DNA from: a virus
Strand: one strand, 5' to 3'
DNA: 64,000 nt
Virus record (IMG/VR): IMGVR_UViG_3300031454_000255
Location: 1,779-65,778 of that record
Below are positions 6,057 to 52,091 of the stretch, in pieces. A program made the position numbers and the translations under genes. Position 1 is the first letter of the stretch. Each line of letters opens with the position of its first letter. The notes beneath the pieces are model-generated. The model saw only the letters and a program-made list of their open reading frames with translations. It made no database searches and was not told the DNA's origin.

Positions 6057-6205
6057 TTTAATTAAAATAGAAAAGCCCGCCGATAATTCAGCGGGCAAGA
6101 AGCGAAGCTAAATCTAACGGCGGGCGGGAAAGTCTTTAAGAAAAGAGTTTCGAGACCCTTATTCAGTTGTGGTTATTATAAACTAAATACCAATAAAAAC
6201 AAGGT
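6057..6205 (-). promoter_or_regulatory. Leader A: sigma70-like promoter, GGGTCT box, terminator-like hairpin
   Basis: TTGTTT-16-TATAAT, then GGGTCTCG, then hairpin GCCCGCTG-AATTAT-CGGCGGGC-TTTTCT just before the ATG at 6056. An upstream GCCCGCCG could pair with the same 3' arm. Confidence 0.65.
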
Positions 6206-6256
6206 TTATTTGAAAATTGGACTGTTACTTTAAGACTATATTTAGTAAAATATAGT

Positions 6257-7018
6257 ATGCTTTTAATTAAAAATTGCGAGACTTGTCACCAAGAGTTTTC
6301 TAGAAAAACAGGATACAGTTATAAATATTGGAACACGCAAAGATTCTGCTCTTCAAAATGCAGGTCTATTGCCATCGGTAAATTATTAAGCATAAAATTC
6401 AGTCAAAAAATAAATTTAGTCTGCCAATCCTGTCATATCTCTTTTTCAGTTTCACCCTGCCAATCGAAGCAAAAATATTGTTCGAGAAAATGCCAGCCGA
6501 GGTCGGTAAATGTTTTTGGGCATTGTCCGAATCGCGCAATAGTTTTTAGAACTTGCCCGAATTGCGAGAAAGTGTATAGCGGAAGTAATAATAGATATTG
6601 CTCAATACAATGCAAAAAGCAAGGAGTTAAAATTCAGAGAGCCGCAAAAGCAATGAAAGGCGAAGAACTTAAAATGGCAAAAAGAGTTTATGCCTCAAAC
6701 AGACGCTCAAAAATAATCGCAAACGGCGGCAGTTTTACAAAAGAGCAATGGAGATTAAAGTTAGAATATTTCGGCAATCGCTGCTATCTATGCAGTAAAA
6801 CCGTAACTGAAAAAACCGCCCATATCGAACATCGAATTCCTATCAGTAAAGGCGGCAAGTCTTGGGTTTCCAATCTTGCGCCCTCTTGCGCTAGCTGCAA
6901 TTTCAAAAAAAACCGTAAAACAGAAAAAGAATTTAGAGAGATTTACAATCTCAAATCCGCGCTAACTGTCGCTCGATTTCACCAACCCGTCGAAGCAATG
7001 CCCGCCGCTCATCAATAA
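6257..7018 (+). CDS. HNH endonuclease with N-terminal CxxC...FCSxxC zinc repeats
   Basis: C-terminal CYLC...HIEHRIPISKGGKSWVSNLAPSCASCNFKK; AT-rich and antisense to the tail operon. Confidence 0.85.
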   Translation: MLLIKNCETCHQEFSRKTGYSYKYWNTQRFCSSKCRSIAIGKLLSIKFSQKINLVCQSCHISFSVSPCQSKQKYCSRKCQPRSVNVFGHCPNRAIVFRTCPNCEKVYSGSNNRYCSIQCKKQGVKIQRAAKAMKGEELKMAKRVYASNRRSKIIANGGSFTKEQWRLKLEYFGNRCYLCSKTVTEKTAHIEHRIPISKGGKSWVSNLAPSCASCNFKKNRKTEKEFREIYNLKSALTVARFHQPVEAMPAAHQ

Positions 7019-7118
7019 GCCTTTGCTTTTTTGGTTTTTGGGAGTCAACAATTTTCCGCCTTAATAAACGCTTTTTCTCTTCGATAATAACTGGAGTGTT
7101 AGAATCTAAGTTATCCAC
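6951..7118 (-). CDS. Small basic protein, 55 aa (peptide family copy 1; not in ORF track)
   Basis: Manual translation from GTG: MDNLDSNTPVIIEEKKRLLRRKIVDSQKPKKQRLIDERRALLRRVGEIERQLARI. Start overlaps the stop of 7111..7572. Shares NLDSN and RR...EI.R.L with 35533..35730. Confidence 0.6.
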   Translation of the reverse strand: MDNLDSNTPVIIEEKKRLLRRKIVDSQKPKKQRLIDERRALLRRVGEIERQLARI

Positions 7119-7572
7119 CGTTCTTTAACCACCTTAATATCGCGCCATCTAAAGACTCTCCGTCTTCAATGTCAATTTCAAATGTCGAATTCGAGAGCGT
7201 GAAAGACGCGCCCGATAATTCTTTGCGATAGGTGCGCTTTATTTCCGACACATCCGTCATCAGCCGTTTGTAGGAACGCCCGCGAAACGTCACGCCGTCT
7301 GTTTTTGCGAATCCCATTAAAAAGTTGGGATTTTGAGGGCAAGGACAAAAACCCACAACGGAAGAATTTAAAACGCTAGCAGTTTCTGTAACTTGAGTTT
7401 GATTTTCTGTAACCGGAATTGCATTTTCTGTAACTATCACTTGCGCTGTTTGGCAAGCGCAAAGCGAAGGAAATGTGTCACTTTTGTACAATTCTACCAC
7501 CCACGATTGCCTTTTAGCAGTCGCGTTGCCAGAGGTGAGGACAGTGAGCAAATTGTCAGAAACGGTTTGCAT
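7111..7572 (-). CDS. Minor tail protein; probable N-terminal half of the split tail-tip gene
   Basis: MQTVSDNLL...GVTFRGRSYKRLMTDVSEIKR...ASFTLSN resembles the start of siphovirus tail-tip/hub proteins. The continuation (FEGLICVIRILDR) begins the 6056 ORF. Confidence 0.55.
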   Translation of the reverse strand: MQTVSDNLLTVLTSGNATAKRQSWVVELYKSDTFPSLCACQTAQVIVTENAIPVTENQTQVTETASVLNSSVVGFCPCPQNPNFLMGFAKTDGVTFRGRSYKRLMTDVSEIKRTYRKELSGASFTLSNSTFEIDIEDGESLDGAILRWLKNGG

Positions 7573-7582
7573 TGATTTTGAG

Positions 7583-10321: not shown

Positions 10322-10368
10322 ATATTTATGAGGTAAGAGACGGAGCGGTTAATTTCCCTTTTGGGTAA

Positions 10369-12846: not shown

Positions 12847-12864
12847 ATATTTATTTTCTTTTTC

Positions 12865-17969: not shown

Positions 17970-18398
17970 GGTATCCAGCCCGTCTTGGACTGATTCACCT
18001 CCGCCCGTATTCGCCCAATTCAGAAGAAATATAAAATCTTCGCTTGTGATTTCTTCTGCCGAAATTTCATTGTCAGCTTGAGGGTTATCAACAATTAGCG
18101 GGTCAACGCAGATATGACGAAGTATTTTCGCTGAAAACTCAATTGCCTTAATTTGTTCTTTTGCCGAAAGCTGTTTATAAGCATCTTCTTCGCTTAATCC
18201 GTCAGATTTCGCTTGCTGCATTTTCTCAACTAGCGCGAGCGGCAACGTACCAGAAACTAAAAAGTTTTCTAAATTCGGCAGGCGCAAAACCCAAATCATT
18301 CCAGACGGCGATTCGACTTCAAAAGTTTTTTGAGACGCTTGCTGTTTTGTTTTGAGTCGCCGGTATTCGGCAACTGACATTCGTTTTTTTATTTTCAT
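17955..18398 (-). CDS. Tail assembly chaperone G 1
   Basis: Upstream of the tape-measure gene; paralog of 24749..25300 and 31743..32219 (SPSGM.W, DP.I...P..D.EI, L.NW..TGG). Confidence 0.75.
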   Translation of the reverse strand: MKIKKRMSVAEYRRLKTKQQASQKTFEVESPSGMIWVLRLPNLENFLVSGTLPLALVEKMQQAKSDGLSEEDAYKQLSAKEQIKAIEFSAKILRHICVDPLIVDNPQADNEISAEEITSEDFIFLLNWANTGGGESVQDGLDTFSGK

Positions 18399-18409
18399 TT
18401 GTGGTGTCG

Positions 18410-18575
18410 GCAAAAAGAAAAACACCCGCTCAAGAAATGAAATAAATCCATTTCTTGAGCGGGTGTTTAGTTCCTTTTCGGAAGTGCAGACCCTTTTATT
18501 AAATTTTATGCGTTTAGACGAAAAGCGTTTTGCCTAAACTGTAAGAAGTATAATAGTTTTTTTGATTATCTACAA
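18410..18575 (-). promoter_or_regulatory. Leader B: promoter, GGGTCTGCAC box, small hairpin, strong terminator-like hairpin
   Basis: TTGTAG-17-TATACT; GGGTCTGCACTTCC-GAAAA-GGAA; ACACCCGCTCAAGAAATG...CATTTCTTGAGCGGGTGT-TTTTCTTTTT. Confidence 0.75.
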
Positions 18576-18588: not shown

Positions 18589-18972
18589 TTATCTGATTTC
18601 CCAGGCAATGCGCCATTTTCGGCTTTCACGAAACAATTTCATTTGTATGGATTCTTTCGAGCCACCATTAAATAAAACATCGCCGATAACGCCCGCTGTT
18701 TTAAAATCAATTAATTTGTTTCTGAGATTAAAACCTTTCAAGCCGCCTGCGCTTTTGCAAGATTTATTCCAAACCTCAAATGCTAAGTCTATAACCGATT
18801 TGTGCAGACGAACCGTTGAAGAAAGTTGCTGTTTTGCTTTGATAAAATCGCCGCCACAAATATCTTGATAAAATGTTTTCACAGTATCGGACGGGCGCGG
18901 CACAGCGAATATATTGATATTCAAACTTAAAGTAAAAACAAACGCCAAAAACAATCCGAAAAACATTTTCAT
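18589..18972 (-). CDS. Secreted/periplasmic moron protein (NTF2-like fold suspected)
   Basis: Signal peptide MKMFFGLFLAFVFTLSLNINIFA; PSDTVKTFY...KWRI pattern. Confidence 0.65.
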   Translation of the reverse strand: MKMFFGLFLAFVFTLSLNINIFAVPRPSDTVKTFYQDICGGDFIKAKQQLSSTVRLHKSVIDLAFEVWNKSCKSAGGLKGFNLRNKLIDFKTAGVIGDVLFNGGSKESIQMKLFRESRKWRIAWEIR

Positions 18973-19010
18973 TTTCGGATTGTAGCTTTAAAGATTTGAG
19001 TTTGAAAAGA

Positions 19011-19205
19011 CTAAATTTGAAGTTCCTTGACCCGCCGCGCCTCTAACGCTTCTAAAACCAAATCCATATAAGCCGGAATTTCAAGCCGACCCGTTTCGTA
19101 GCCTGAAACAGTATTTGAAGCAAAGCCGAGAATTTTAGCTAATTCGCTTTGTGTTAATCCTAACCTTTCGCGCCGTTTTTTTAGTTCGGTTTTTTCCATT
19201 CTCAA
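19011..19205 (-). CDS. XRE-family helix-turn-helix regulator
   Basis: LKKRRERLGLTQSELAKILGFASNTVSGYETGR; paralog of 56481..56720. Confidence 0.85.
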   Translation of the reverse strand: MRMEKTELKKRRERLGLTQSELAKILGFASNTVSGYETGRLEIPAYMDLVLEALEARRVKELQI

Positions 19206-19340: not shown

Positions 19341-19499
19341 ATGCAGAAAATTAAAATCAACGGCTACACGGTGACAATCTTCAACCACTACAACGGAACG
19401 CAGTTATTTATTAACGATTCAAAAGGCGTTCAAATCTACGCTCATAAAGTTACGGGCGATGCGATGCTGCGAGCTTTGGAAATAATCGGACAAAACTAA
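19341..19499 (+). CDS. Small hypothetical protein, 52 aa (not in ORF track)
   Basis: Manual translation MQKIKINGYTVTIFNHYNGTQLFINDSKGVQIYAHKVTGDAMLRALEIIGQN; purine-rich RBS; same position as 33191..33391 in the twin module. Confidence 0.6.
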   Translation: MQKIKINGYTVTIFNHYNGTQLFINDSKGVQIYAHKVTGDAMLRALEIIGQN

Positions 19500-19505
19500 A
19501 AACGA

Positions 19506-19545
19506 AAAGGTTTAGATAAGTTCGCGCTTACCTAAACCTTTCTTT
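19506..19545 (+). terminator. Intrinsic terminator-like hairpin
   Basis: AAAGGTTTAGATAAG-TTCGCG-CTTACCTAAACCTTT followed by CTTT. Confidence 0.6.
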
Positions 19546-19571
19546 AATCCCTTCGGGAAGGAATCATCAAT

Positions 19572-20087
19572 ATGGACAAGATAACACGAAAGAAATTAGA
19601 AAAGAAACACGGACAAATAAAAATTTGCTTTACCTGCGGAAAACCCAAAGCCCTTTTTGATTTTTATAAATCTTCATATTGGGTAAGCAACAAAGGCAAT
19701 CCGGTTGTTAAATACGCCGTTCACCGAAATTGTAAGATATGTGAACGAAAACAAACAACTTCCAAACGAACCTCGCCCGCAAAAACTCGCCAACCGCGCC
19801 CGATTATGAGTTTTGAAGATACTCAAATCGCAAAGCGCAATAATTTATTAAAACGTAAATACGGCATTACGCTTGACCGATACAACGAATTTTTAGAACG
19901 GCAAAACGGCGGCTGCGCGATTTGCGGCGAACCGCCGACAACTCAAATTTTAGTTGTTGACCATTGCCACAAATCCGGCAAGATTCGCGGTCTGCTCTGT
20001 CATAAACATAATTCGGCAATCGGATTCTTAAACGACAGCCCAGAACTAATCAAAAAAGCAAACGAGTATTTGGGAGAGGCGAAATGA
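19572..20087 (+). CDS. Endonuclease VII-like HNH nuclease
   Basis: LKRKYGITLDRYNEFLERQNGGCAICG...LVVDHCHKSGKIRGLLCHKHNSAIG. Confidence 0.85.
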   Translation: MDKITRKKLEKKHGQIKICFTCGKPKALFDFYKSSYWVSNKGNPVVKYAVHRNCKICERKQTTSKRTSPAKTRQPRPIMSFEDTQIAKRNNLLKRKYGITLDRYNEFLERQNGGCAICGEPPTTQILVVDHCHKSGKIRGLLCHKHNSAIGFLNDSPELIKKANEYLGEAK

Positions 20088-20524
20088 AAATTTGTAGCAA
20101 CTGCCGACTACCAAAACCGCTAAAAATGTTCGTCGTCAAAAGATGCGGTGTTTGGGCTTATATCGAGAGATGTAAGCCCTGCCGCGCCGCCTCGAAACCT
20201 TTCCGCAAGTTCTGGAAACCATTAACGCCGGAACAGCGCGAACGAAATCGAATGGCGAGCCGCGCCAGAAAATTAAATTGCTCTGTGATTATTCCTTTTA
20301 CAAAAAGAGAAATAATTTTTCGTGACGGGTTGAATTGTTATTTATGCGGGAAATTATTGACTGAAAAAACCGCAACTATCGACCACGTTAAGCCGTTATC
20401 GCGCGGCGGTTTTCATTGTCCGAATAACGCAAAAATCGCCTGCAAACCTTGTAATCAAAAGAAAACTAATAAAGAATTATCGGAGTGCTGTGATGAATTT
20501 AATCAAAAAACTAACATTGCTTAA
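20084..20524 (+). CDS. HNH endonuclease
   Basis: IFRDGLNCYLCG...TIDHVKPLSRGGFHCPNNAKIACKPCNQKK. Confidence 0.85.
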   Translation: MKICSNCRLPKPLKMFVVKRCGVWAYIERCKPCRAASKPFRKFWKPLTPEQRERNRMASRARKLNCSVIIPFTKREIIFRDGLNCYLCGKLLTEKTATIDHVKPLSRGGFHCPNNAKIACKPCNQKKTNKELSECCDEFNQKTNIA

Positions 20525-22025: not shown

Positions 22026-22182
22026 GGCAAGAATCAATTTTCAGCATCTTGTTGACCTTAGACAAGGATTTAATGATTTCACGCCGCAAATCCATCAATT
22101 CAGCGTTAGGCAATGAAGATGAATTTGCGGCAATGTTTACCCTAGCTACTGATTTAATTTCTTCGCTTTGCATTTGAGGCAT
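22003..22182 (-). CDS. Small protein, 59 aa (peptide family copy 2; not in ORF track)
   Basis: Manual translation MPQMQSEEIKSVARVNIAANSSSLPNAELMDLRREIIKSLSKVNKMLKIDSCPNCGRRK; starts 5 nt after the stop of the truncated tape-measure gene. Confidence 0.65.
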   Translation of the reverse strand: MPQMQSEEIKSVARVNIAANSSSLPNAELMDLRREIIKSLSKVNKMLKIDSCPNCGRRK

Positions 22183-22706: not shown

Positions 22707-22798
22707 AAGAAAATGCCTCCCGCTGAAAGTGGAGACACAAAAGGCGCGTCACAAAGGTAAGTTAGATTTATATTAGATTAAAAGGCTGAAAATCGCAA
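22707..22798 (-). promoter_or_regulatory. Leader F: promoter plus weaker hairpin/U-tract
   Basis: TTGCGA-17-TAATAT; TGTCTCC-10-GGAGGCA-TTTTCTTTT directly before the TTG start. Confidence 0.5.
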
Positions 22799-27285: not shown

Positions 27286-27299
27286 TAAACTGACCTCTA

Positions 27300-27452
27300 A
27301 AACGAAAAACACCCGCTAAAAATGAACGGTTGTTCAAATCTAGCGGGTGTCGAGTTTCTAAAAAGAAAGTGCAGACCCTTCGTTAAAATTTTTACCTAAA
27401 GACGCGCTTTAAGTTCACTGTTAATTTACCGCAAAAAACAGAAATTAGCAAG
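27300..27452 (-). promoter_or_regulatory. Leader C: promoter, GGGTCTGCAC box, small hairpin, terminator-like hairpin
   Basis: TTGCTA-17-TAAATT; GGGTCTGCAC-TTTCT-TTTT-AGAAA; ACACCCGCTAG...TAGCGGGTGT-TTTTC. Confidence 0.75.
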
Positions 27453-36958: not shown

Positions 36959-38014
36959 TTAAACGCCGGAGTTTATTACGTATACTTTCGCCTCTGACGG
37001 AATCGGAAGCGCATTCACCTGAACTTCAAGCTCAAGCGATCTGCCCATCAATCCGCCTTCGTAGAAAGCCGTCTGCCCGCGAACGTCAATGCCCGAATTC
37101 GGAAGCGACGCCGACAAATCCATTGCGCGAACCACAGGCGCGAACGCCGTTCTGCCGACTCTGCCGCCCGCCGGAATCGCCGCCACTCGCTGCGCCGGAA
37201 ACACTTTAGCTGATGTGGTTGTCGTTCCGCCGTCAACAAACGGTTCTAACGTCTGTTCGTTGATAATGAAAGTGAAATCCGTTCCGATTGTGTCCTGAAC
37301 CATCGTTTCGATTTGCCGACGATTCGCGGTGATCGCGGGAAGCTCGCGCGGCGCGTCCGCCGCAATCGCGTTATAAGTCGCCTGCCGCATCATTGCGCCG
37401 CCGACCGCGCCGATTGCTTCGCCCGCGCTTGTCAAAAACGAAACGAACAGATCGTAGGCATTAACACCTGCGTCATTCCACGCCGTCGGCGCGGTTAGAT
37501 AGCGACTCGAATCGTAATTCAGAGACGCGGCGTAAGTTTCGCCCGTTTGCGGATTCTTCTGCGTAATCACGCCCAAAATCCACGCATTAAAAGCGTCAAT
37601 TTCAATTCGGCGATAATTCGACTCGACAATCTGCGTTAGTTTGCCGGGAATCGAAGTTTCCATAATCTGCTGCAAAAGCGCGGCGTTACCCAAAGTGCGT
37701 TCCGCCATTCGCTGCATTTCGTATTCGCCCCATTTGAAATTTCCTTCAACCGGCACGATGGAAACCTTTTTCGTGTCCGGCGTTTTGTTCGGGATTAAGC
37801 GCCCGCGCTGATTCCATTCGCGCCGATCTGACACCGGGCGATAATCAAGCGTCGTGATTTCATCGAGGTCAACCGAATCCACGTTTTCGCGCGGGAAAAA
37901 CCGCTCATAAAGCAGATTGTCGGGAACGTCCGATGCGTTAATAGTTTGAGCCAGAACCGTCAAGGCTGGCTCGGAAAGTGAATCTATTGCTGATACCCAC
38001 GCAAAACTGCTCAT
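36959..38014 (-). CDS. Major capsid protein (lambda gpE-like)
   Basis: 351 aa after the scaffold and decoration genes; LYERFFPRENVDSV...LELEVQVNALPIP. Confidence 0.8.
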   Translation of the reverse strand: MSSFAWVSAIDSLSEPALTVLAQTINASDVPDNLLYERFFPRENVDSVDLDEITTLDYRPVSDRREWNQRGRLIPNKTPDTKKVSIVPVEGNFKWGEYEMQRMAERTLGNAALLQQIMETSIPGKLTQIVESNYRRIEIDAFNAWILGVITQKNPQTGETYAASLNYDSSRYLTAPTAWNDAGVNAYDLFVSFLTSAGEAIGAVGGAMMRQATYNAIAADAPRELPAITANRRQIETMVQDTIGTDFTFIINEQTLEPFVDGGTTTTSAKVFPAQRVAAIPAGGRVGRTAFAPVVRAMDLSASLPNSGIDVRGQTAFYEGGLMGRSLELEVQVNALPIPSEAKVYVINSGV

Positions 38015-38456: not shown

Positions 38457-39158
38457 TTAGTAAACCCGAGCCGCGATTTCCTTTAAGCTCACCGTTTGCG
38501 GCGAATTCTTTTTCTTTTCTTCGGCATTTTTGCGAATGCGGTCAAAAAGTGAATCGCCTCCGCCATAAACAGCCGGCGGCGGCGGATTGCCCGGTTTTTG
38601 GATTTGCTGCTGCGCTTCGCCTTGCTTTAACGCGGTTAAATATTTCGGAAATTTTTCCTGTCCGAAGTCATCGAGTGACGACTCTTTGCCGTCGAGCGAA
38701 ACGAAAGGAACCTCGCGCTCTTTGCTCGCGTCCTTTTCGTCTTTAATTTTTTTTGTCGTGAGCGTCGCTTCGGGAAACTTCGCAAGCTGTTCTTCGAGAA
38801 CGTCCAAATCATAGCCGAGCTTTTCAACATTTCGGTATGAATCACGCTTAACGAGTTTCTGGTTTTCGGTTTCGAGTTCCGACACTTTGCCGAGTCGCTC
38901 TTTGGTTTGATTGAAGTCTAGTTTCACTTCAGCTAAAAACGCATCAGCTTCGTCAAGGCGGTTCTTTTCTTCGGGTGATAAAATAATCGCGCCGTCTTTC
39001 GGCTGCGTGTTTTTCAATTCGCGCTTATCACGGCGCAGTTGAAAATTCTCGTCAAATAGCTGCGAAGCTAATTTGAGAGCGTCGTTGTTATTTTTCGTTA
39101 AAAGATTCTGAAATGCTTCCGCCGGATTCGGCTTATTATCTTGATTTTCGTCTGGCAT
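38457..39158 (-). CDS. Scaffolding protein
   Basis: Charged coiled coil with a Pro-rich C-terminus; AAGGAG RBS before MPDENQ. Confidence 0.7.
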   Translation of the reverse strand: MPDENQDNKPNPAEAFQNLLTKNNNDALKLASQLFDENFQLRRDKRELKNTQPKDGAIILSPEEKNRLDEADAFLAEVKLDFNQTKERLGKVSELETENQKLVKRDSYRNVEKLGYDLDVLEEQLAKFPEATLTTKKIKDEKDASKEREVPFVSLDGKESSLDDFGQEKFPKYLTALKQGEAQQQIQKPGNPPPPAVYGGGDSLFDRIRKNAEEKKKNSPQTVSLKEIAARVY

Positions 39159-39189
39159 AAACTCCTTGAGTTTGTTTGAATTTAAAAAC

Positions 39190-39336
39190 AAAAAAAACGC
39201 CCGAAAAACGTGAACATTAAGTTCAAATCTTTCGAGCGTTCTACCTTTTCAGGCGTTCTACTCTAAACTGATTAAATTGTCTACGCACGGATGCGCTTAA
39301 CTAGAAATCTACATTATCTTTTCCGTAAAAGCAAGA
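39190..39336 (-). promoter_or_regulatory. Leader E: promoter plus terminator-like hairpin before the scaffold gene
   Basis: TTGCTT-17-TAGATT; AACGCTCGAAAAG...TTTTTCGGGCGTT-TTTTTTG; an upstream AACGCCTGA could pair with the 3' arm. Confidence 0.65.
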
Positions 39337-39345: not shown

Positions 39346-39510
39346 TCAAACTTTGCGTCCGCATTTACTACAAGTTTTAATCCCTAAGACGCGCGCCAAC
39401 TCCAGCATCACCGACACGGCGTTGCAGTAAGCGGCATAAAGACGCGAGCAGTTATCTTCTTTTTTCGGCACGTCTTTAGCTTTCGTTATTTTTATCGGTC
39501 TTTCAATCAT
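39346..39510 (-). CDS. Small protein, 54 aa (peptide family copy 4; not in ORF track)
   Basis: MIERPIKITKAKDVPKKEDNCSRLYAAYCNAVSVMLELARVLGIKTCSKCGRKV; ATGA-coupled to the MuF-like gene stop. Confidence 0.65.
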   Translation of the reverse strand: MIERPIKITKAKDVPKKEDNCSRLYAAYCNAVSVMLELARVLGIKTCSKCGRKV

Positions 39511-40188
39511 TTGAATTCCACTTCACACAAACACCATACTCCGCAAACTAAGCTGCCGATTTCCGGCATCTCTTCAATCGGTATAAACTCATACGAAGCA
39601 ACCTCAGAGCATTCGACACAGCCTTCTTTCGAGTTAATCACGCGCCTGCAAAGTGTCGCGTCCCCAGCCATTTCAGCAACCGTCGCCAGTCCGTAATAAG
39701 CGGGGCGAACGCCTAAAGCATAAGCCGCCGTGCGCTGTTCAATCTGCAATCCTCCGGCGCGTCCCGTTTCGATGTCGCGGCGCAGTTTGTCCAAATATCC
39801 GAATTGTTTGTCGATTCCCTTTTGCGCTGTTGCCCCAATCCGCATTCGTCATTTGTCTGCGCCCGCCGCGCCCGATTGCCGCCGCTAACTTTTGGGCTGT
39901 TGTAATCCTTTCTTTGACAAGCGATTGCCAGGCGGCTAAGGTTATCGCGCCCGTCGCCAAACTCTTTCCGATTACCCGCAAATCTTCGCGGACAATCTCC
40001 ACGATTGAGTCAATCGAGGCGCGAACCTGTTTCGATGAAACGCCTTTGTAACGATTGGTTTTTTTGTCGTGTTTAATCGTCATCGCTTCGAGCAAGGCTA
40101 ATGCCAGCAATCCTGCGCGGCGGGCAAGTTCGCGCGTTCGTTTTATTTCCTCGCGTGTCGGCTCGCTCGCGTCTCTACGGTCGCTCAT
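39507..40188 (-). pseudogene. MuF/SPP1 gp7-like minor head protein split by a frameshift near 39835
   Basis: Frame 1 ...GGRRQMTNADWG; frame 2 continues GATAQKGIDKQFGYLDK...CVEC...CGVWCLCEVEF. Confidence 0.6.
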
Positions 40189-41714
40189 TTAGTTGTCACT
40201 GCCACGTTTGCCGCCGCGTCCGTCATTCCGTAAGCCTGCGCCGTTATCGGGTCTTCTTTTGCAAGCTGACTGATGATTTCCTTTATTTTCTTTTCGTCGT
40301 AACCTAAAAACGCGATACGCTCCCGAAGCGGCAAAAGTCCGGTGGCTTTATTGGCGTTGTCGAGTTTTGCACCGTCAATCGCCACTCGTTCATCTTCGGA
40401 TTGTTCGATTAAAAGAGAGCGTTTCAAATTGAAATCTAAATCGCCGCCTTCGTAGGAATCGAGATTGAATGGCGCGAACACCTTTTGCTGGTTCGTTTTC
40501 CCCGCCCATCCGTTTGATAGTCGCCAGCCACCAATTGCCGTCTGCATCTGCCGTAGTTTGATTAATTGCCCGTCGTAATTCGGCGCGGCGCGATCAAGAC
40601 GATTCTGTGCCGGAGTCAATAGCCGTTCGAGCGCGATACCTGAAAGCGTGGCGTTTTCTTTGATAATTTGCCGGTATTCGAGTTCGGGGTAATCCGCGCC
40701 GAAGGAGACGAGCAATTCTTTCAAATACGGCTGCGCTTCAGCAAGTTTGAGTTTGCCCGATAAATCATTGACCGATACCACACCTTTAGAAGCAATTAAA
40801 ACTCTTTCAAGTCGAGTGTCCGCTTCTCTGATTGTGCCGTCGGCGTTCTTTGTCGCGCCTGAAATCGTCATGATTGACGCCGGGTCTTCGAGTCCGAGCC
40901 ATTTGCCGGATTCGATTTCTTTGTGGATATTGTCGTGCAGGTGCGAAGCTAAAGAATTCGCGTGATTCACTTTCGCGTAATCATTAAACGCCGCGTCGCC
41001 GAACGCGCCCGCGCCCGTATGACGAAACTGAACAGCGGGACAAAAGCCGTAGGGATTCGTCACAACCGAGGGTTTGCCGAGATAATCAAAAGGTTTGTCG
41101 TTATAGAAAAAACGAAAATCGTCTTTGGTGATTTCCTTTCGGAATCTGAATGTTTCTTTAAGAACGGGGTCATACACGGGAATCTCAACCGTATAGGCTT
41201 CGACATCTCCGGCGCGATTCATTTCGATATGCTTGATAAATCCCGCCCAAACCGTATTCTGTTCGATTTTCTGCCGATCTTCGTTGTCGATGATTTCAAC
41301 CAGACACGACCCGGCAACGGCGGTGTAGGCTTTGATTTCGGCTTGCGCCCGCCAGAAGTTTGTCCATTGGTCAATCTGAGCAATCGTATCAATTATCTTT
41401 GGGTTCGCGGCGTAAGCGACCGGCGTCACCAAAGACGGATGGTCGGCGTCAGACGGCGCCGACCAGATGTTATCAACGTAGAAATCAATAATATTCGGCA
41501 CGACGTTAAAGACGAGCTTCGTATGCTGATACAGATCTTCCTTAGTGCGGAGCCACGACCAGTCATTCTCGACGGCGAACGCTTTCCGAGAGTAATATGC
41601 CCACGCGAGACGGTAACCGTCCAAATGTTCGTCCGCCGATGGTTTATCGAATAATCCCGCCGGATCGGTTAGTGTTTTATATGCCATTTTTACCCTCTCA
41701 AAAAAGTTAAACAT
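40185..41714 (-). CDS. Portal protein
   Basis: 509 aa after the terminase; NVVPNIIDFYVDNIW, ENATLSGIALERLL. Confidence 0.8.
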   Translation of the reverse strand: MFNFFERVKMAYKTLTDPAGLFDKPSADEHLDGYRLAWAYYSRKAFAVENDWSWLRTKEDLYQHTKLVFNVVPNIIDFYVDNIWSAPSDADHPSLVTPVAYAANPKIIDTIAQIDQWTNFWRAQAEIKAYTAVAGSCLVEIIDNEDRQKIEQNTVWAGFIKHIEMNRAGDVEAYTVEIPVYDPVLKETFRFRKEITKDDFRFFYNDKPFDYLGKPSVVTNPYGFCPAVQFRHTGAGAFGDAAFNDYAKVNHANSLASHLHDNIHKEIESGKWLGLEDPASIMTISGATKNADGTIREADTRLERVLIASKGVVSVNDLSGKLKLAEAQPYLKELLVSFGADYPELEYRQIIKENATLSGIALERLLTPAQNRLDRAAPNYDGQLIKLRQMQTAIGGWRLSNGWAGKTNQQKVFAPFNLDSYEGGDLDFNLKRSLLIEQSEDERVAIDGAKLDNANKATGLLPLRERIAFLGYDEKKIKEIISQLAKEDPITAQAYGMTDAAANVAVTTK

Positions 41715-41718: not shown

Positions 41719-42885
41719 TTATTTTAGAAGTCTGACGATTGATTTTTGTTCATCGGTCATTGCAAAGACGGGCTGATTAAAATAAAACGAAGCGTATCTG
41801 CCGGCGTCGAGTAAATGGTCGTCAAACTTGACGACTTCATCGGTTAAAGTGCCGCTTTTGTCGGTTTTCCACGAATAGCGTTTGATTTCCCGAAGTAGAT
41901 TGCCGCTAGTCTCTAAGATTCGCAAAGGTTTTGATTTAACAAAATCAACGGTGTCTTTGACTAATTTGAAAGCGGGTTGAATACGAAAACCAGCGCGTGA
42001 TATTTCTTCGATTCTCTGAGGTTCGGCAGCGTCGGCAATAATCAGCCTGCCTTTGAGTTCGGGGAAAGTTTTCAGTCTTTCGATTAAGTCGGCGTTTGTT
42101 AATTTCGATTCATACAGCATTTCGCGCCAGTAAAGCGTGTTGTCGAGCATCGTAACTTTGCACAAAGCCGTCGGATTGTTGTAACCGAAATCTAAACCGT
42201 AAACCATTTCGCCTTCGGGAATTAATGAAACTTCGCGCCAATGTGTGTAAATGCGCGAACCGCCCGCACCGATTTGACCAAGCCCGTAAATGTTCCAATA
42301 ATCGGCGTCGGCATCTTTTAATCTTTCAATTTCATCGATAATGGATTGGTCGAGAAACTTGTTATCAGTGTAATTTGTAACGAGCAAGTCACAGTCATTT
42401 CGGGTTTCGACGTCATCATAAATCCACGAAAAAGCCTCTGACGGATTATAATCAATAACAATTTTTTCCGTTGTTCTGAAAGCAAGCTGCCGAAACGCTT
42501 CAAGAGCGCATTCGTTCGCTTCATTGAGAAACAAATAATCGCGTTTTCGTCCGCGAACGCGCATTGATTCGTTCAAGCCGATAAACTCGACCAGATTACC
42601 GTGCAGAGTGTATTCGTTTGATGTTTTATTGTGAAAACTTTCATCATACAAGCCTAGATTTTCAAGCAATCCGAAAAAATCGCGCATCGCCGACGCTCTT
42701 AAAGCGGGCATCGTCTGGCGAGCAATCGTCAAGGTTTTTCCCGTTTCCTGTAATAGCCGCACAATCCAGTAAATCAGCGTATTTGTGGTTTTGCCCGAAC
42801 GAGTCCCACCCCGCAAAGACGTTATCCGCACAGCCGATTCGCTAAGGAATTCAAAGACGACGTTTGTTTTGATAACAGCTTCCAT
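41719..42885 (-). CDS. terL: Terminase large subunit (PBSX-like)
   Basis: Walker A RGGTRSGKT, Walker B YLFLNEANE, DYNP, GLDFGYNNPTA, DDHLLDAGRY. Confidence 0.92.
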   Translation of the reverse strand: MEAVIKTNVVFEFLSESAVRITSLRGGTRSGKTTNTLIYWIVRLLQETGKTLTIARQTMPALRASAMRDFFGLLENLGLYDESFHNKTSNEYTLHGNLVEFIGLNESMRVRGRKRDYLFLNEANECALEAFRQLAFRTTEKIVIDYNPSEAFSWIYDDVETRNDCDLLVTNYTDNKFLDQSIIDEIERLKDADADYWNIYGLGQIGAGGSRIYTHWREVSLIPEGEMVYGLDFGYNNPTALCKVTMLDNTLYWREMLYESKLTNADLIERLKTFPELKGRLIIADAAEPQRIEEISRAGFRIQPAFKLVKDTVDFVKSKPLRILETSGNLLREIKRYSWKTDKSGTLTDEVVKFDDHLLDAGRYASFYFNQPVFAMTDEQKSIVRLLK

Positions 42886-46170: not shown

Positions 46171-46321
46171 TTTTACCCTCGACTGACTAAATAAAAATTG
46201 ACTGCGTTCAGTGTCAGACTGACCAAACATAAGAACGAAATCACCAGTAACAGGATTTCAAAGTATTGAACTTTCTTGTGCAGGCGCATCCAATCCCCGT
46301 CTTCGGACGATTTCTCTTTTT

Positions 46322-46711
46322 CTAAATTTCCATCCATTGCTTCACCTCTCTGACAAAATCAAAAACGTCTACCGGCTTTTTGAAAAACTTTTCAACCTGC
46401 ACCCTGTTTGCCACTCTTCGCACGGGCGGATCAATGTTACTGCCTGTCCAAAATGCGATTTTTACGGGAGGTTCTTTTAGCCACGCTGATTCGTTGCGGC
46501 GAATTTCTTCGGACACTTGAAGTCCGTCCAGGGTCGGCATCGCCAAATCTAAGATTACCGAGTCAACCTCTCCGTGATTATCTTCCAGATATTCAAGAAC
46601 CTGACCGCCCGACGGAAAGAAATGAAAATCAATTTCAGGCTCATCACCAAAAGCAATCTCCATCATTCGCTTAATAGACCGGTTGTCGTCAACAAGTAAT
46701 ATTTGTTTCAT
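46322..46711 (-). CDS. Single-domain response regulator (CheY-like receiver)
   Basis: ILLVDD, VILDLAMPTLDG, FWTG and KKP: all catalytic positions present. Confidence 0.9.
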   Translation of the reverse strand: MKQILLVDDNRSIKRMMEIAFGDEPEIDFHFFPSGGQVLEYLEDNHGEVDSVILDLAMPTLDGLQVSEEIRRNESAWLKEPPVKIAFWTGSNIDPPVRRVANRVQVEKFFKKPVDVFDFVREVKQWMEI

Positions 46712-47091: not shown

Positions 47092-47108
47092 TGATTCGCG
47101 CCGCGTTT

Positions 47109-47846: not shown

Positions 47847-47894
47847 CTTGTTTTTTCTTTCTAAACTTGCGGCGTTTTGCCGAGATAATTTCTT

Positions 47895-48950: not shown

Positions 48951-48958
48951 ATTTTTCC

Positions 48959-49273
48959 CTAGACCGACGAAATTAATTTATGTTTGGAGAGCGTTTCGGT
49001 TTTGATAACTTCAATCGGCGTGTCGACGGGAGCGTTGCGGGCTTCACGAACGACATTGACGTTGTATTTTTGTTTCGCAATCATCCAGAGCAAACTGCCG
49101 CAGAAAAACAACGCGCCGACGAGATACTGCACAGATTCGAGACTCGTCAAGGTTTCAGTCTGCTCTGAATTTAACCAGCCGCTATGGACAAGTTTTAAAC
49201 CGACGACGACAAGAAATTTTCTGATTAAATCGGCGGCTAATTGTTTGTAAAAATCCGTATCCTTATTAGTCAT
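48959..49273 (-). CDS. Holin-like protein
   Basis: Two hydrophobic segments; overlaps the endolysin stop codon. Confidence 0.55.
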   Translation of the reverse strand: MTNKDTDFYKQLAADLIRKFLVVVGLKLVHSGWLNSEQTETLTSLESVQYLVGALFFCGSLLWMIAKQKYNVNVVREARNAPVDTPIEVIKTETLSKHKLISSV

Positions 49274-49904
49274 CGAGTTTCTCCAGAGCTTCTGTATAAC
49301 TAGAATTGAGCGGCGAAGGAGCGTGAGCGGCTTTGTTTTCGACTGTATCCGCATTGCTTTGTTCGCCGCCGTTTTCAACTTCCCCGTTAGCGGAGTTATT
49401 AACTGAGTTCGCGCGCGCTTGCGTTGGGGTTGGGGTTGAAAGTGAGTTTGTGTCAGGTGTTAAAAATAATTTGCGTTCGGCTTCACGGCGGCGCGTTAAA
49501 CCTTTAACGACAACCAATTTTCCTTTTACAGTTGCTTTTACCCAATCTAGGAAGTGGTTGCTTGCCGACACGTAATCTTTTTGGTTTAGCTTTCTCAAAA
49601 CCGACGAACCCGAAAAAGCGTGTGCGCCGATATTAAAAATAAGGCTCGTCAAAGCACTTCTTTGGTTATCGTTTATCGGAACTTTAACAAGGGTTTTAAC
49701 GGTATTGCCCGCCGAAGCTAAATCTTTTGTCAAAAAAGCATCGGATTGTTCGGATGTTATTTTTTGTCCTAATTTAAGAGTGCGTTTATCGTCTGCGGTC
49801 AATAAATGTCCACAGCCGACCGTTTCTAAGTTCGCGCTATCAAGATAAACTTTCAGCACTACGCCCTCAAATTGCTTTATTAAATCTAATGTTTGCTTAT
49901 TCAT
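49266..49904 (-). CDS. Endolysin, GH24 (phage lysozyme family)
   Basis: IKQFEG...YLDSANLETVGCGH (E-D-T triad), NQRSALTSLIFNIG, GLTRRREAERKLF. Confidence 0.92.
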   Translation of the reverse strand: MNKQTLDLIKQFEGVVLKVYLDSANLETVGCGHLLTADDKRTLKLGQKITSEQSDAFLTKDLASAGNTVKTLVKVPINDNQRSALTSLIFNIGAHAFSGSSVLRKLNQKDYVSASNHFLDWVKATVKGKLVVVKGLTRRREAERKLFLTPDTNSLSTPTPTQARANSVNNSANGEVENGGEQSNADTVENKAAHAPSPLNSSYTEALEKLDD

Positions 49905-50820
49905 TTTCTTTTTCTACAAACCGCGCTTTATATTGCCGAGAACCAAAAGTTTTAGCTTTTCCGTGCAAACAAGCCGAGATGTTTGAAGCCCAAGCATTTA
50001 ATTCGTTAGCGGCTTCAATGATATTTGTATAAGTTTTTATAATTTCATTACTTTTTGCGTCCAAAACTTCAAAAGGACGCGCAAGCCGTTTTCTTACAAT
50101 TTCAGAGGCTTTTGCTTTGTATTCTAATGATTGCAATACTTTATTAAGTTGCTCTTTCCGGTTTGGCGCATCTCGAAACTTAGATATTCTTTGCTGCTTT
50201 TCTTCTTTAGAAAGTGTTGACCACCATTGCTTTGTTTCTAGGGATTTTCGTTCTTTATAAGCAACTGTATTATGAGATTTTCTGATAGCAATTCCGGCTT
50301 TTGCCCTCGCTTCCGGTGTGTGTAAATATTTCTTTGCCACCGCTCGGCTGGCTTCTTTAATCTTTTCGATATTTGCGGCGCGTCCTTTACGAAGCGATTC
50401 AGTCAGTTTTGTTTTTTCTTCATTATTTGCCCAACGATTTTTTGCCGCAGCCGACATTCTTTTTTTGGTTTCATCTGAAAAACCTAACTGACGGTCGCCG
50501 CCTGATGAGGCGTTATAGCCGTTTTTAGCTAAAGTGTTGTAGGTCAAAATCGCTTCCATTTCTAAAATGTTTAATTCTGCAATTGAATCGGATTCGTATA
50601 ACACTTTCCATTCAAATTCGCGCTGTCCGTATTTACGCAAAGCGCAATGAAAAGGAAATTGCATTCCTTTTTTTGCTGATGCAATATGCCGTTTCTTTCT
50701 GTTTTCCAACAAATATCCGGTTGTGTGAATCTTTCTTGAATAAGTTTGCCCTACATATTGTTTGCCGTTTTTCAAACAAGTTGCGATATAAACAATTCCA
50801 AAAACTTTTATGTAAATCAT
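49897..50820 (-). CDS. GIY-YIG homing endonuclease with NUMOD3- and NUMOD1-like DNA-binding modules
   Basis: GIVY...YVGQT; FSDETKKRMSAA; YTNIIEAANELNAWASNISACLHGK. Confidence 0.88.
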   Translation of the reverse strand: MIYIKVFGIVYIATCLKNGKQYVGQTYSRKIHTTGYLLENRKKRHIASAKKGMQFPFHCALRKYGQREFEWKVLYESDSIAELNILEMEAILTYNTLAKNGYNASSGGDRQLGFSDETKKRMSAAAKNRWANNEEKTKLTESLRKGRAANIEKIKEASRAVAKKYLHTPEARAKAGIAIRKSHNTVAYKERKSLETKQWWSTLSKEEKQQRISKFRDAPNRKEQLNKVLQSLEYKAKASEIVRKRLARPFEVLDAKSNEIIKTYTNIIEAANELNAWASNISACLHGKAKTFGSRQYKARFVEKENE

Positions 50821-51142
50821 AGTAACTACAGTATATTACAGCTACTAAATAAAAGCTATTGAACATAAGCGAAACAAGCGCATCAAATTGGTTTTGTGTA
50901 ATCGGAACTTGAACTTCTTTGTTGATGGCGTTTTCGGCAATTCTTAAATCTTGACGTAAAAGTCTTTCACTCTCGGCTTTTGTGATTTTCCCGTTTAATT
51001 TATACGGTTCGTCTTTTAAAACAACGTGTCCGACACCTATCGTTAAGATTTTTACGGCATCGAGATAGCCGTGCAAAACTTCACCTTCAAATTCAATAAT
51101 TAAATTGATTCCGTTTTCACTTGTTATGTAATTATTTTTCAC
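50633..51142 (-). pseudogene. Truncated GH24 endolysin (homology ends near 50855)
   Basis: IIEFEG...YLDAVKILTIGVGH...QNQFDALVSLMFN, then unrelated residues running into the GIY-YIG gene. Confidence 0.8.
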
Positions 51143-51957
51143 GAAAACACCTCCATTTTATTGAGGCTAAAGGCGTTTTGAAGAAGTTTGGTTTTACCGG
51201 CTAACTGTTGCGTTTTCAAATTGGCTTTTTTAGTCGTCTCAATTTGTTTCGCTTTAGCTTTTTTTAGACGCGCTCTTTTAGCTTGTTTGACGTTTCGTTC
51301 TCTTTCTATGACGGCTAATTTTCTGGCACTTTCACGTTCTTTGACCGCTGCTTCCTTTTCTTTCTGCTGAATTTGTTTGATTTCTAAAAACGCCGGATTA
51401 CGCGATACGTTAAAATCTTCAATAAAAGCCGGTCTTTCTAATCGCTTAGTTACTTCACTCACCAGTGGTTCTGCTTTTTTCGCTATCGATTTTGCAACAT
51501 CACCGGCGGCTATGCTGTTTGAACCGGCAAAGAACGCAAGAGAGGCGATTATTTCCGGGTTTGCCGTTAAATTAAGGGCATTTAAGAAGCAATCGCCATT
51601 AAGGTAGACCCCATCAAGATAGTTAGCGATTTGAGAATTGATTTTTCTTTGAGCAACATTCAAGGTCTTATCGCTGATTTTCGTATTAAAAGAAAGTATG
51701 GTGTCAGAAAGCCATAAATTAACAGCTTCGCGCAAAGTAGGAACGATTAAACGGCAAGCAATATCCCGCCCGCCTGTAGAATAGATTTGGCGACGCCAGC
51801 CGTTAAATTGATTTGATAGATAATCCCACCACGCGACCGAGACGGTCTTTGTTTTTCTTTGAACCGGAAATTTATAAACCAAACCATCTAAATCGTTGAT
51901 AGCTTGTTTTATCGTATCGGCATAAATGTGTTGAAACATATTTTTGACCAAAAACAA
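51139..51957 (-). CDS. Hypothetical protein, first gene of the late operon
   Basis: Intact 272-aa ORF with a basic coiled-coil C-terminus. Confidence 0.6.
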   Translation of the reverse strand: MFLVKNMFQHIYADTIKQAINDLDGLVYKFPVQRKTKTVSVAWWDYLSNQFNGWRRQIYSTGGRDIACRLIVPTLREAVNLWLSDTILSFNTKISDKTLNVAQRKINSQIANYLDGVYLNGDCFLNALNLTANPEIIASLAFFAGSNSIAAGDVAKSIAKKAEPLVSEVTKRLERPAFIEDFNVSRNPAFLEIKQIQQKEKEAAVKERESARKLAVIERERNVKQAKRARLKKAKAKQIETTKKANLKTQQLAGKTKLLQNAFSLNKMEVFS

Positions 51958-52091
51958 AAAGCCCGAATTTTCTCTGGTAAAGAGAAAAAACGAGCTGCAA
52001 AACTTCGCTGGTGGTTTGCGTCTTCCGTTGCCGGACAGCGCGAACCGCTAAATTATTTTTAAGTTTAGTCTACTTTGTGGTTTTTAATCAA
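51950..52091 (-). promoter_or_regulatory. Leader G: candidate late promoter plus terminator-like hairpin
   Basis: TTGATT-18-TAAACT; GCTCGTTTTTTCTCT-TTACC-AGAGAAAATTCGGGC-TTTTTGTTTT. Confidence 0.55.

Follow-up and report, generated by a model that had tools for sequence, protein, structure and literature searches.

What does a promoter that runs directly into a transcription terminator do ahead of virion genes? The question is raised by a 66-kb provirus from a rock metagenome, in which a leader unit recurs ahead of head and tail gene blocks; we analyzed a stretch of 64,000 nucleotides from this record, referred to here as the window. Among tailed phages, the timing of late-gene expression has, to our knowledge, been worked out in just a handful of models (lambda Q, P2 Ogr, Mu C, T4 gp55, and RinA). 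The parts common to the leaders are a sigma70-type promoter, a 5' hairpin, an AAUUU box, a 26-37-nt hairpin (P1, internal loop, and P2), and a canonical intrinsic terminator, which ends 10-60 nt 5' of the start codon. At least 15 related phage contigs carry the unit as well, and judged by its sequence, it has the look of an on/off switch for virion genes of a kind not described before. In the Rfam 15 search, the 64-kb window had no covariance-model match at gathering score, and the only matches around leader B were sub-threshold and to generic long hairpins.

Five related leaders and one analogous unit in the window

An earlier note on this DNA listed seven late-gene leaders, and the leader features were all verified, on the minus strand, at the positions it gave; five of the seven are related (leaders A to E), a sixth at 51957 is analogous, and the one at 22706 does not belong with them. 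Leader B (18399..18575, minus strand) precedes a tail-chaperone-like gene (ATG at 18398) and a tape-measure gene. Its promoter (-35 at 18575-18570, -10 at 18552-18547) is followed by the 5' hairpin (18539-18512), the AAUUUAAU box (18505-18498), the antiterminator core P1-loop-P2-loop-P1' (18493-18461), and the terminator (18466-18422), with a U-tract to 18412. Leader C (27286..27451, minus strand) precedes a tail-completion (Neck1-like) gene (GTG at 27285), and its parts follow in the same order: promoter (-35 at 27451-27446, -10 at 27428-27423), 5' hairpin (27413-27395), box (27390-27383), core (27378-27345), and terminator (27350-27309; U-tract to 27299). Leader D (32220..32377, minus strand) precedes a second chaperone-like gene (ATG at 32219), behind which lies a gene for a 1285-aa tape-measure-like/transglycosylase protein. 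Its promoter has a -35 at 32377-32372 and, as described earlier, a weak -10 (32354-32349), and the 5' hairpin (32340-32327), box (32322-32315), core (32311-32280), and terminator (32285-32243; U-tract to 32233) complete the unit.

The proposed homology of these three leaders held up: B and D share 82% identity across 96 nt (E 8e-15), whereas the flanking proteins are just 28-30% identical, and the same boxes are present in C. The GGGTCT(G/A)(C/T)AC box has exact matches only at 18493, 27378, and 32311, and the small hairpin behind it does keep its pairing despite sequence change (UUCC/GGAA versus UUUCU/AGAAA). The sequence ACACCCGC occurs six times, as both arms of three hairpins (expected 1.2; reached by 0 of 100 shuffles).

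Leader E (39159..39334, minus strand) precedes a 233-aa scaffold-like gene (ATG at 39158), a 134-aa gene, and the major capsid gene. It comprises a promoter (-35 at 39334-39329, -10 at 39311-39306), a 5' hairpin (39296-39283), the AAUUUAAU box (39278-39271), a core that reads GAGU, AGAAC, GCCU-GAAA-AGGU, AGAAC, and GCUC in succession (39263-39234), and a terminator (39242-39194; U-tract to 39184). Leader A (6057..6202, minus strand), before the gene for a 1210-aa tail protein (ATG at 6056), is a short variant with neither 5' hairpin nor AAUUU box; its promoter (-35 at 6202-6197, -10 TATAAT at 6180-6175) is followed by a core at 6158-6122 and a terminator at 6125-6075 (proximal form 6096-6075; U-tract to 6064). 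Leader A carries the reported GGGTCT, and the upstream copy of the terminator's 5' arm is present in both A and E. By sequence comparison, we classify B, C, and D as clear homologues and E and A as diverged members.

The hairpin and U-tract folded far better than shuffles at six sites, with z-scores of -8.4 for B, -4.9 for C, -5.6 for D, -3.5 for A, -4.3 for E, and -3.7 for the 51957 site. This last unit (51940..52091, minus strand), before a 272-aa gene (likely ATG at 51939) and lysis genes, has a promoter (-35 at 52091-52086, -10 at 52067-52062) and a terminator (51996-51960; U-tract to 51950). It gave no match to the covariance model described below, and neither the P1/terminator overlap nor sequence homology is demonstrable; it is analogous to the leaders in layout only (promoter, then terminator). 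The 22706 site (22707..22798, minus strand), before a 172-aa ORF, has the promoter-like site that had been noted (-35 at 22798-22793, -10 at 22775-22770) but not the terminator hairpin: only a weak hairpin was found (22745-22715; z +0.69), with no convincing terminator and no covariance-model match, and the site was ruled out as a family member on the basis of the weak hairpin and the missing match.

A leader conserved ahead of scaffold-like and capsid genes

B-type copies are also found in two metagenome contigs, L162 and L165, behind a TTGACT-17-GATAAT promoter. A covariance model built from B-type copies only, of the kind that the earlier note had proposed, recovered E and A inside the window (A at 23.4 bits, E 0.023). 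The same model matched the intergenic leader before the scaffold-like gene in contigs L157, G003, and G004 and in 8 of 10 further contigs, with no other match in 128 kb; in G001, L175, and L193, the leader at this place was recognized by eye. About 14 related phage contigs carry a single copy at the position of leader E, directly before scaffold-like and capsid genes, and this position is the ancestral one. The leader is kept across phages with head proteins just 35-60% identical, spans siphovirus-type and sheath-bearing tails, and is conserved far more than the adjoining genes.

In the window phage, leader copies follow nuclease-bearing opposite-strand inserts, and the leader's purpose had been proposed to be letting inserted cassettes rejoin the late program. 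The single-copy contigs, which lack such inserts, argue against this purpose, as does L162, in which the B-type copy precedes chaperone and tape-measure genes without an insert. The multi-copy state of the window phage looks like re-use of an ancestral cassette. T4-type promoter-stem-loop cassettes are likewise mobile repeated units at module boundaries and more conserved than flanking genes; they consist of early promoters and simple stem-loops, and we know of no description of an antiterminator/terminator overlap in them.

These patterns also bear on an explanation without any regulated switch, in which the leader would combine a constitutive booster promoter, a leaky attenuator, mRNA-stabilizing or processing hairpins, and a conserved module boundary for recombination, much like the T4-type cassettes. 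The leaders indeed stand out by their high nucleotide identity amid modules that have otherwise diverged (B versus D, L162 versus L165), those of the window phage lie at mosaic joints beside homing-endonuclease inserts, and 5' hairpins and long perfect stems are typical of stabilizers or RNase III targets. However, with their GC-rich base and 8-11 U, the terminators are strong ones of canonical type, a leaky constitutive promoter ahead of capsid genes would be costly in a provirus, and the overlap of P1 with the terminator, the covariation of P1, and the co-varying loop strands (see below) would be left unexplained; we consider this explanation distinctly unlikely.

A covarying basal stem that overlaps the terminator

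The 3' strand of P1 coincides with the first 3-5 nt of the terminator stem, and in every correctly cut full-length fold these nucleotides lie within the terminator stem. Based on folding, forcing P1 to form costs +3 to +13 kcal/mol; because P1 is unfavorable to this extent, a stabilizing factor would be needed, as with RAT sites (PMC3575810). Of 11 truncated transcripts, 9 were predicted to form P1, as were 18 of the 19 cores folded in isolation. Across 18 sequences, 94.4% of P1 positions are paired, compared with 43-57% in slid controls, and compensatory changes occur in two of the four pairs (G-C to C-G and G-C to A-U), with an additional P1 state (UGGU:ACCA) in L193. For P2 and the terminator base, 98.8% of cells are paired, with double changes at six pairs. 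P1 is short, and its single-sequence p values (0.01-0.38) are not significant; the combined statistics ignore shared descent. There is one A-C mismatch in P1 of G003, and the G-rich hairpin of L182 does not touch the terminator.

The two strands of the internal loop vary between lineages, yet they are alike inside each leader, as direct copies (AGAAC/AGAAC, CAAUC/CAAUC, CACC/CACC, CACA/CACA, and AAAG/AAAG; combined p 4e-9, with shared descent ignored). Matching strands of this kind fit recognition by a co-evolving dimeric protein, and alternatively the direct repeats could form a binding site at the DNA level. Loops of both the B-type (CUNNAC) and the E-type (AGAAC) occur in the window phage, so that one phage would require two specificities, a point against the switch reading.

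A compact hairpin that overlaps a terminator and has a conserved G-rich basal stem could also be expected of a small-molecule riboswitch, with the internal loop binding a metabolite or ion that reports host state. The loops are lineage-specific (CUNNAC, AGAAC, CAAUC, CACC, AAAG, AC), and such differences between lineages would not be compatible with a conserved ligand pocket; together with the lack of an Rfam match, this makes a riboswitch highly improbable.

Promoter, 5' hairpin, and AAUUU box

The promoter is 5' of the terminator in all leaders. In 13 of 18 leaders, a site of the form TTGnnn-16..18-nAnnnT ends 2-16 nt ahead of the 5' hairpin, compared with 5.9% of random anchors, which supports the sigma70-like promoters proposed earlier and gives them a fixed place. 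The interval from terminator to start codon leaves no space for a second promoter, so that transcription has to get past the terminator. In 12 of 18 leaders, against a background of 6%, an NAATTT box comes after the 5' hairpin, at +19 to +24 in E-type leaders and +19 to +35 overall; both hairpin and box are absent from leader A and L193.

With its own promoter, 5' hairpin, AU-rich single strand, stem-loops, and Rho-independent terminator, and with multiple paralogous copies within one genome, the leader has the anatomy of a small-RNA gene (~110-130 nt), whose product might act in trans on host or phage messages while the late genes are transcribed otherwise. Such a gene would not account for the fixed sense position 10-60 nt before scaffold-like or tail genes in ~20 contigs, and these genes have no other promoter. 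Beyond the AAUUU box, no single-stranded seed is conserved across lineages, and the P1/terminator overlap would be needless for a trans-acting RNA; we regard this explanation as quite improbable.

The box also fits NANNNT, which raises the possibility that processive antitermination is loaded at the leader, much as with lambda Q/Q21/BrrG, HK022 put, or ConAn. In that case, the promoter would be constitutive. The AAUUU box would serve as a -10-like site of sigma-dependent pausing, or else RNA polymerase would be modified by the folded RNA, and the modified polymerase would ignore the leader terminator as well as all later ones. Lambdoid late control (PR', sigma-dependent pause, 6S RNA, tR', and Q) is similar in that the late genes of a temperate phage are directly preceded by a constitutive-looking sigma70 promoter, a short transcript that is non-coding, and a terminator, possibly with a -10-like element within the transcribed leader. 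It differs in that it is processive, whereas in the phage leader a hairpin competes with the adjacent terminator, a local logic; in addition, there are several leader copies per genome here, and the -10-like box, at about +20 to +35, does not adjoin the start site. The HK022 putL and putR sites are structured RNAs of two stem-loop regions just downstream of a phage promoter, and they need no known phage protein family; they act processively on polymerase without terminator overlap. Between the leaders and put, no Rfam or sequence similarity was found.

The BrrG/Q21-like system of the Bartonella gene transfer agent needs a -10-like NANNNT and a leader terminator (10.1101/2024.11.20.624540), and its layout of constitutive-looking promoter, leader, terminator, and late genes is that seen here. 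ConAn, a precedent from Gram-positive conjugative elements, is also processive: a small protein acts with a structured RNA in the 5' leader to get transcription through the terminators of a long conjugation operon (PMC8191782). The likeness to ConAn would lie in a mobile element's use of a small protein together with a leader RNA; unlike ConAn, the phage hairpin overlaps its own terminator. Processive antitermination is nevertheless unlikely in our view: lambdoid phages have the -10-like element much closer to the start, A and L193 lack the box, and the covarying P1 3' strand, which is always the adjacent terminator base, would be left unexplained. No gene of the Q families (PF03589, PF06530) was found in the record (~73% complete), and what is conserved is not a DNA site at the promoter but a hairpin in the RNA, in local competition with each terminator; in the form invoked in the earlier note, the lambda Q model is not supported.

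Comparison with RAT sites and a candidate trans-factor

RAT sites are 29-35 nt long, have a basal stem of 2-4 bp, and overlap an intrinsic terminator (PMC3575810, PMC5393181, PMC12591593). The phage leaders resemble the RAT of BglG/SacY/LicT in being 5'-leader hairpins of similar size (26-37 nt) with a short basal stem (3-5 bp) whose 3' strand is part of the terminator, in having variable, probably specificity-giving internal loops, and in an antiterminator far weaker than the terminator, so that a protein clamp is needed. Their loop symmetry would suit a homodimer, which in the RAT systems binds the hairpin, stabilizes it, and so prevents termination. They differ from RAT in sequence, in having one near-symmetric, lineage-specific internal loop rather than two asymmetric ones, in preceding virion genes rather than sugar operons, and in the addition of a conserved promoter of their own, a 5' hairpin, and an AAUUU box. 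A six-frame search of the 66-kb record (~73% complete) identified no CAT (CoAT) domain (PF03123), to which control genomes respond, and no PRD protein was found in the phage. PHROG scans of ~80 ORFs identified no antiterminator. ANTAR (PF03861) was likewise not found in the record (~73% complete), and the phage's receiver-domain protein (46322-46711) is without an ANTAR domain; an ANTAR dual-hairpin leader, which has two hexaloop hairpins with the terminator overlapped by the second, was rejected because no ANTAR protein was found and the loops are not conserved hexaloops.

Directly upstream of leader E, a gene (39346..39510, minus strand) encodes a 54-aa basic protein, which belongs to a family of small proteins at the same spot in related phages. 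The small proteins upstream of the leader matched no Pfam or PHROG family. By inference only, the 54-aa protein is a candidate trans-factor.

Proposed mechanism and significance

From the parts, their order, conservation, and covariation, and the P1/terminator overlap, we infer that termination occurs, that it is relieved, and that an agent relieves it, as follows. A host sigma70-type promoter would fire into an RNA of ~100-130 nt that carries the 5' hairpin, the AAUUU box, and the 26-37-nt hairpin, with its basal stem P1 (3-5 bp), near-symmetric internal loop, and apical stem-loop P2. By default, the far more stable terminator would prevail, so that transcription stops and virion genes are silent in the lysogen. 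A factor that clamps P1-P2 shut would block the terminator base, and RNA polymerase would enter the head or tail genes. The likeliest clamp would be an RNA-binding protein that the phage encodes and that is specific to its lineage; the small basic protein from just upstream may be this factor. The ancestral copy would gate the scaffold-capsid block, and the window phage would re-use the cassette before tail modules.

The earlier proposal of an antitermination or attenuation element thus survives as regulated termination, given the promoter-terminator order and a covarying hairpin that overlaps the terminator base, without the Q model and the cassette-rejoining role. On the sequence evidence, we see an evenly balanced case for the leader being a local antiterminator/terminator switch, RAT-like in action, outside the BglG/LicT family, and probably held open by a phage protein. 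More tentatively, and with a clearly lower probability, the switch may be portable and self-contained: a basic protein of 54-75 aa encoded directly upstream would bind the antiterminator hairpin as a dimer and open the terminator, protein subtype and loop would co-evolve, and the cassette would travel with gene modules and be re-used after homing-endonuclease insertions.

The scaffold-capsid block, together with the tail modules in one phage, seems to be under the control of a compact RNA switch, and the architecture of P1 versus terminator is clear and can be tested by mutation. If the local switch is real, it would add a RAT-like antitermination mechanism to phage biology, provide a sequence signature for annotating late promoters of uncultured phages, and offer synthetic biology small orthogonal terminator switches with lineage-specific loops. 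If the portable form with its small protein is also correct, soil and rock phages would have a new family of RNA-binding antiterminators in control of their virion genes, and the system might be one case of a much wider, unrecognized mode of late-gene control.

Leaders within the window

The late-gene leaders of the window phage belong to a real, conserved leader RNA family with an antiterminator/terminator architecture, and this family has apparently not been described before. On the minus strand, one unit recurs ahead of the gene starts at 18398 (leader B), 27285 (C) and 32219 (D). It reads GGGTCT(G/A)(C/T)AC, then a small hairpin, then ACACCCGC...GCGGGTGT and finally a U-tract; ACACCCGC was observed six times, compared with 1.2 expected occurrences. 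Over 96 nt, leader B matches leader D at 82% of positions, in contrast to 28-30% identity for the flanking proteins. The hairpin and U-tract at these three sites, at leaders A (6056) and E (39158) and at 51957 fold far better than shuffled sequences (z -3.5 to -8.4); those at 22706 fold no better than shuffles (z +0.7).

Based on the repeat count, the B/D identity and the folding scores, the seven leaders of an earlier note become five related ones (A to E), an analogous one (51957) and a non-member (22706). The structural description in that note was largely right. It had also pointed out that, in A and E, the 5' arm of the terminator has a second copy upstream that could form an alternative pairing; we reject an antiterminator role for this copy because the resulting pairing still leaves a hairpin beside the U-tract. 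No ATG with a ribosome-binding site was found in the leaders that could begin a leader peptide.

Genomic context

The source record is a 66,453-bp IMG/VR provirus (GC 45%, CheckV completeness about 73%), of which the window covers 64 kb; it originates from rock metagenomes, and the sequencing runs on record are DNA. The minus strand bears nearly all genes. Early genes, encoding an O-like replication protein, RusA, HNH endonucleases and small HTH proteins, run from 63 kb to 52 kb and are followed by a lysis region in which the endolysin is interrupted by a GIY-YIG gene. This split locus (49266-51142) consists of an N-terminal endolysin fragment (50633-51142), the GIY-YIG homing endonuclease (49897-50820) and a complete endolysin (49266-49904). 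The terminase large subunit (41719-42885), a 509-aa probable portal (40185-41714), a 233-aa scaffold-like gene (38457-39158) and the major capsid gene (36959-38014) come next, and then the tail genes. Plus-strand HNH/EndoVII cassettes lie at 6257-7018, 19572-22025 and 33191-35543 in the mosaic tail region. Two paralogous modules in this region each run from a small HTH protein through a signal-peptide protein, the leader and the chaperone-like and T-like genes to a tape-measure-like gene.

Several further features were recorded. A probable early promoter (TTGACA) at 63060-63167 lies between repeated GTTAAC-containing, operator-like sites, GGTTAACCTTGTTAAC and AGTTAACTTTGTTAAC, and a 48-nt repeat (52750-52797 and 53495-53542, 96% identical) spans the ribosome-binding site and first codons of two small early ORFs. 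The middle genes include a stand-alone response-regulator receiver (CheY-like) domain protein (46322-46711), which is conserved at 35% identity in G002, a related contig. Leader A is followed by the gene for a 1210-aa tail protein (2424-6056) with a C-terminal pretoxin-HINT/intein-like domain (residues 1068-1197), and the 192-nt gap between this gene and the next ORF (9-2231) resembles coding sequence. P0003, a 235-aa homolog of the scaffold-like product, is named "Cas2 endoribonuclease" by JGI; this is probably an annotation error, since the window homolog has no Pfam hit and is encoded between the portal and capsid genes.

Other repeated elements

A second repeated structured element occurs at 19495-19575 and 33385-33470 (54 of 79 aligned bases identical), 5' of plus-strand homing-endonuclease cassette genes. 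It consists of a small hairpin (TCCC-GAA-GGGA), TTAAAGA and a long hairpin. Read on the plus strand, this small hairpin overlaps a ribosome-binding site, GGGAAGGA, and the element may therefore control how the nuclease genes are translated. Two genes for secreted proteins (18589-18972 and 32384-32806) share their 5' ends but are otherwise unrelated: 18932-19021 and 32766-32852 have 81% DNA identity over the first 16 codons (encoding a signal peptide, MKMFFGLFLAFVFT) and roughly 40 nt of upstream sequence, and an inverted repeat, ACAATCCGAAAA...TTTTCGGATTGT, spans the start codon.

Common anatomy of the leaders

Across the family, the parts appear in the order promoter, 5' hairpin, AAUUU(A)AU box, G-rich box, small hairpin, terminator and start codon. 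We anchored the promoter test on leader position, having dropped a naive best-scoring sigma70 scan that mis-picked sites in AT-rich spacers. In 13 of 18 leaders, a sigma70-type promoter (TTGnnn, 16-18 nt, nAnnnT) ends 2-16 nt 5' of the 5' hairpin, compared with 5.9% of random anchors; the remaining five have TTG(A/C)NN with TAAAAG, TATAAA or TCTAAT, or a mis-anchored site. The 5' hairpin is short, GC-rich and free in sequence, with UUCG loops in contigs G003 and G004. The AAUUU(A)AU box follows within 20 nt in 12 of 18 leaders (background 6%), the terminator is canonical with 8-11 U, and the start codon lies 10-60 nt beyond it.

We considered the AAUUU box and GGG as a T7-like or T4-late-like promoter and rejected this reading: conservation of the upstream sequence is poor, and all members have a proper -35/-10 pair farther upstream. 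The 5' hairpin and box could stabilise the transcript, form an RNase E site or serve as a -10-like pause element, the last being known from Q systems (10.1101/2024.11.20.624540).

The family in related phages

A strict pattern scan of metagenome contigs gave 10 matches, two of them genuine (L162 and L165). Both have a B-type box, an ACACCCG terminator with a start codon about 15 nt later, and a near-consensus TTGACT-17-GATAAT promoter about 50 nt upstream, followed by the 5' hairpin; their small hairpins covary (UUCUC/GAGAA and UUUCC/GGAAA), and their leaders are 80% identical over 188 nt. L165 is an ortholog of module B (69% aa identity for the chaperone, 76% for the tape measure). The chaperone-like gene of L162 has no detectable match in the window phage. 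In an alignment of five B-type sequences, 98.8% of positions in the small hairpin and terminator base are paired, and both partners have changed at six pairs, including three of the five in the small hairpin.

The earlier note had called for a covariance-model search. Our model R1, built from B-type copies alone, finds leader E at 27.8 bits and leader A at 23.4 bits, and it matches the intergenic region directly before the scaffold-like homolog in contigs L157, G003 and G004. L157 belongs to a Pyrinomonadaceae MAG and encodes a capsid protein 89% identical to that of the window phage; the MAG contains no match to the window phage's tail region. Further contigs were chosen by encoded homologs of the scaffold-like protein (38-59% identity). 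Every fetched contig has a 110-200-nt gap upstream of the scaffold-like gene; R1 picks out this gap in 8 of the 10 contigs and has no other match across 128 kb. The unit was also found by inspection in L175 and L193 and is present by eye in G001. Extending the set through a profile-based locus search, run with 30 scaffold-like proteins, yielded a single additional contig.

Judging from these contigs, E is the ancestral position and held a single copy; having several copies is a peculiarity of the window phage and its close kin. G003 lacks the window phage's inserts and has a Neck1-like gene directly after the head-tail gene; together with the single E-position copy in related contigs, this makes the link between leaders and inserted cassettes, proposed in the earlier note, secondary. 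The L178 phage has a tail sheath: in this Logan contig (14798-16764) the head module (portal, small protein, leader, scaffold-like, capsid) is joined to a sheath-and-tube (myovirus-type) tail, and in the window phage the shared module adjoins a siphovirus-type tail.

In IMG/VR, the loose pattern GGGTCT..AC..ACACCCGC gave at least 114 matches, all by chance, in coding DNA and lacking the terminator arm; a tight pattern gave nothing. A terminator-only pattern returned 24 unrelated terminators, and an RBS-anchored pattern recovered G003 and G004 only. The phage GenBank collection gave neither nucleotide nor protein matches, and Rfam gave nothing meaningful at the gathering score or at an E-value threshold.

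Overlap of P1 with the terminator

Nineteen leaders parse to one motif, P1a, La, P2 (hairpin), Lb and P1b, with every parsed string verified in its source, and the terminator stem begins with P1b. Leader B reads GGGU, CUGCAC, UUCC-GAAAA-GGAA, CUAAAC, ACCC. The P1a, La, Lb and P1b strands are GGGU, CAAUC, CAAUC, GCCC in L175; GGGU, CACC, CACC, GCCC in L179; CGGU, CACA, CACA, ACCG in L183; GAGU, AGAAC, AGAAC, GCUC in leader E; and GAGUU, AC, AC, GGCUC in G001. P1 pairing is complete in 18 of 19 leaders, the exception being G003 with one A-C mismatch. In an 18-sequence alignment, P1 is 94.4% paired, compared with 43-57% when slid, with compensatory changes at two of four pairs; L193 adds a further state, UGGU:ACCA. 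La and Lb vary among lineages yet are alike within a leader (combined p 4e-9; helix test p 7e-5; both values ignore shared descent and are indicative only).

Folding predicts P1-P2 in 18 of 19 isolated cores and in 9 of 11 leader transcripts ending before the terminator 3' arm. In full-length folds, the P1b nucleotides sit within the terminator stem and forcing P1 costs 3-13 kcal/mol; P1-P2 and the terminator are thus predicted to be mutually exclusive, with the terminator as the ground state.

Every transcript reaching the scaffold, capsid or tail genes crosses a strong predicted terminator with no promoter behind it, so on this layout some antitermination would be logically required. Because P1 overlaps and covaries with the terminator base, the leaders point to a local competition switch, which P1-P2 formation would open. 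The earlier note had cited lambda Q antitermination as the established case; given this overlap and the absence of Q domains from the about 73% complete record, the mechanism is probably RNA-local rather than lambda-Q-like. Also considered were a mechanism that acts processively after loading at the leader, a leaky constitutive attenuator that is at the same time a recombination boundary, a riboswitch, and sRNA genes. Each of these four explains the P1/terminator overlap less well than the local switch does. The local switch has weak points of its own: P1 is very short, one phage carries two loop types, and in L182 a G-rich hairpin makes no contact with the terminator.

The same kind of local competition is known from LicT and SacY, whose homodimers stabilise a 29-35-nt hairpin at RAT sites with a 2-4-bp basal stem overlapping the terminator (PMC3575810). 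The leaders are nevertheless not members of the RAT family, since no CAT, ANTAR or Q domains are encoded in the 66-kb, about 73% complete record and no Rfam family matches the leaders in the window.

Small basic proteins and a possible switch factor

Directly upstream of E-type leaders lies a gene for a small, conserved basic protein whose N-terminus carries an R-IK-I-KK-D motif (54-65 aa; shallow alignment). In L162, a gene for a related "LMNIRRKAM" type lies upstream of the B-type leader, and in the window phage genes of this type are found upstream of the inserts preceding D and B. More broadly, the family spans 51-75 aa and is found directly upstream of leaders or of inserts preceding them (window 39346-39510 for a 54-aa protein, 35533-35730 for a 65-aa one, 22003-22182 and 6951-7118; L162:4406-4633; L176:3077-3241 and others). 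It has no match in Pfam or PHROG, and its subtypes appear to track leader loop types.

Loop strands that co-vary and are specific to each lineage favour a phage-encoded protein over a host factor or metabolite as the factor that would act on the local switch, and the small upstream basic protein is only a candidate for this role.
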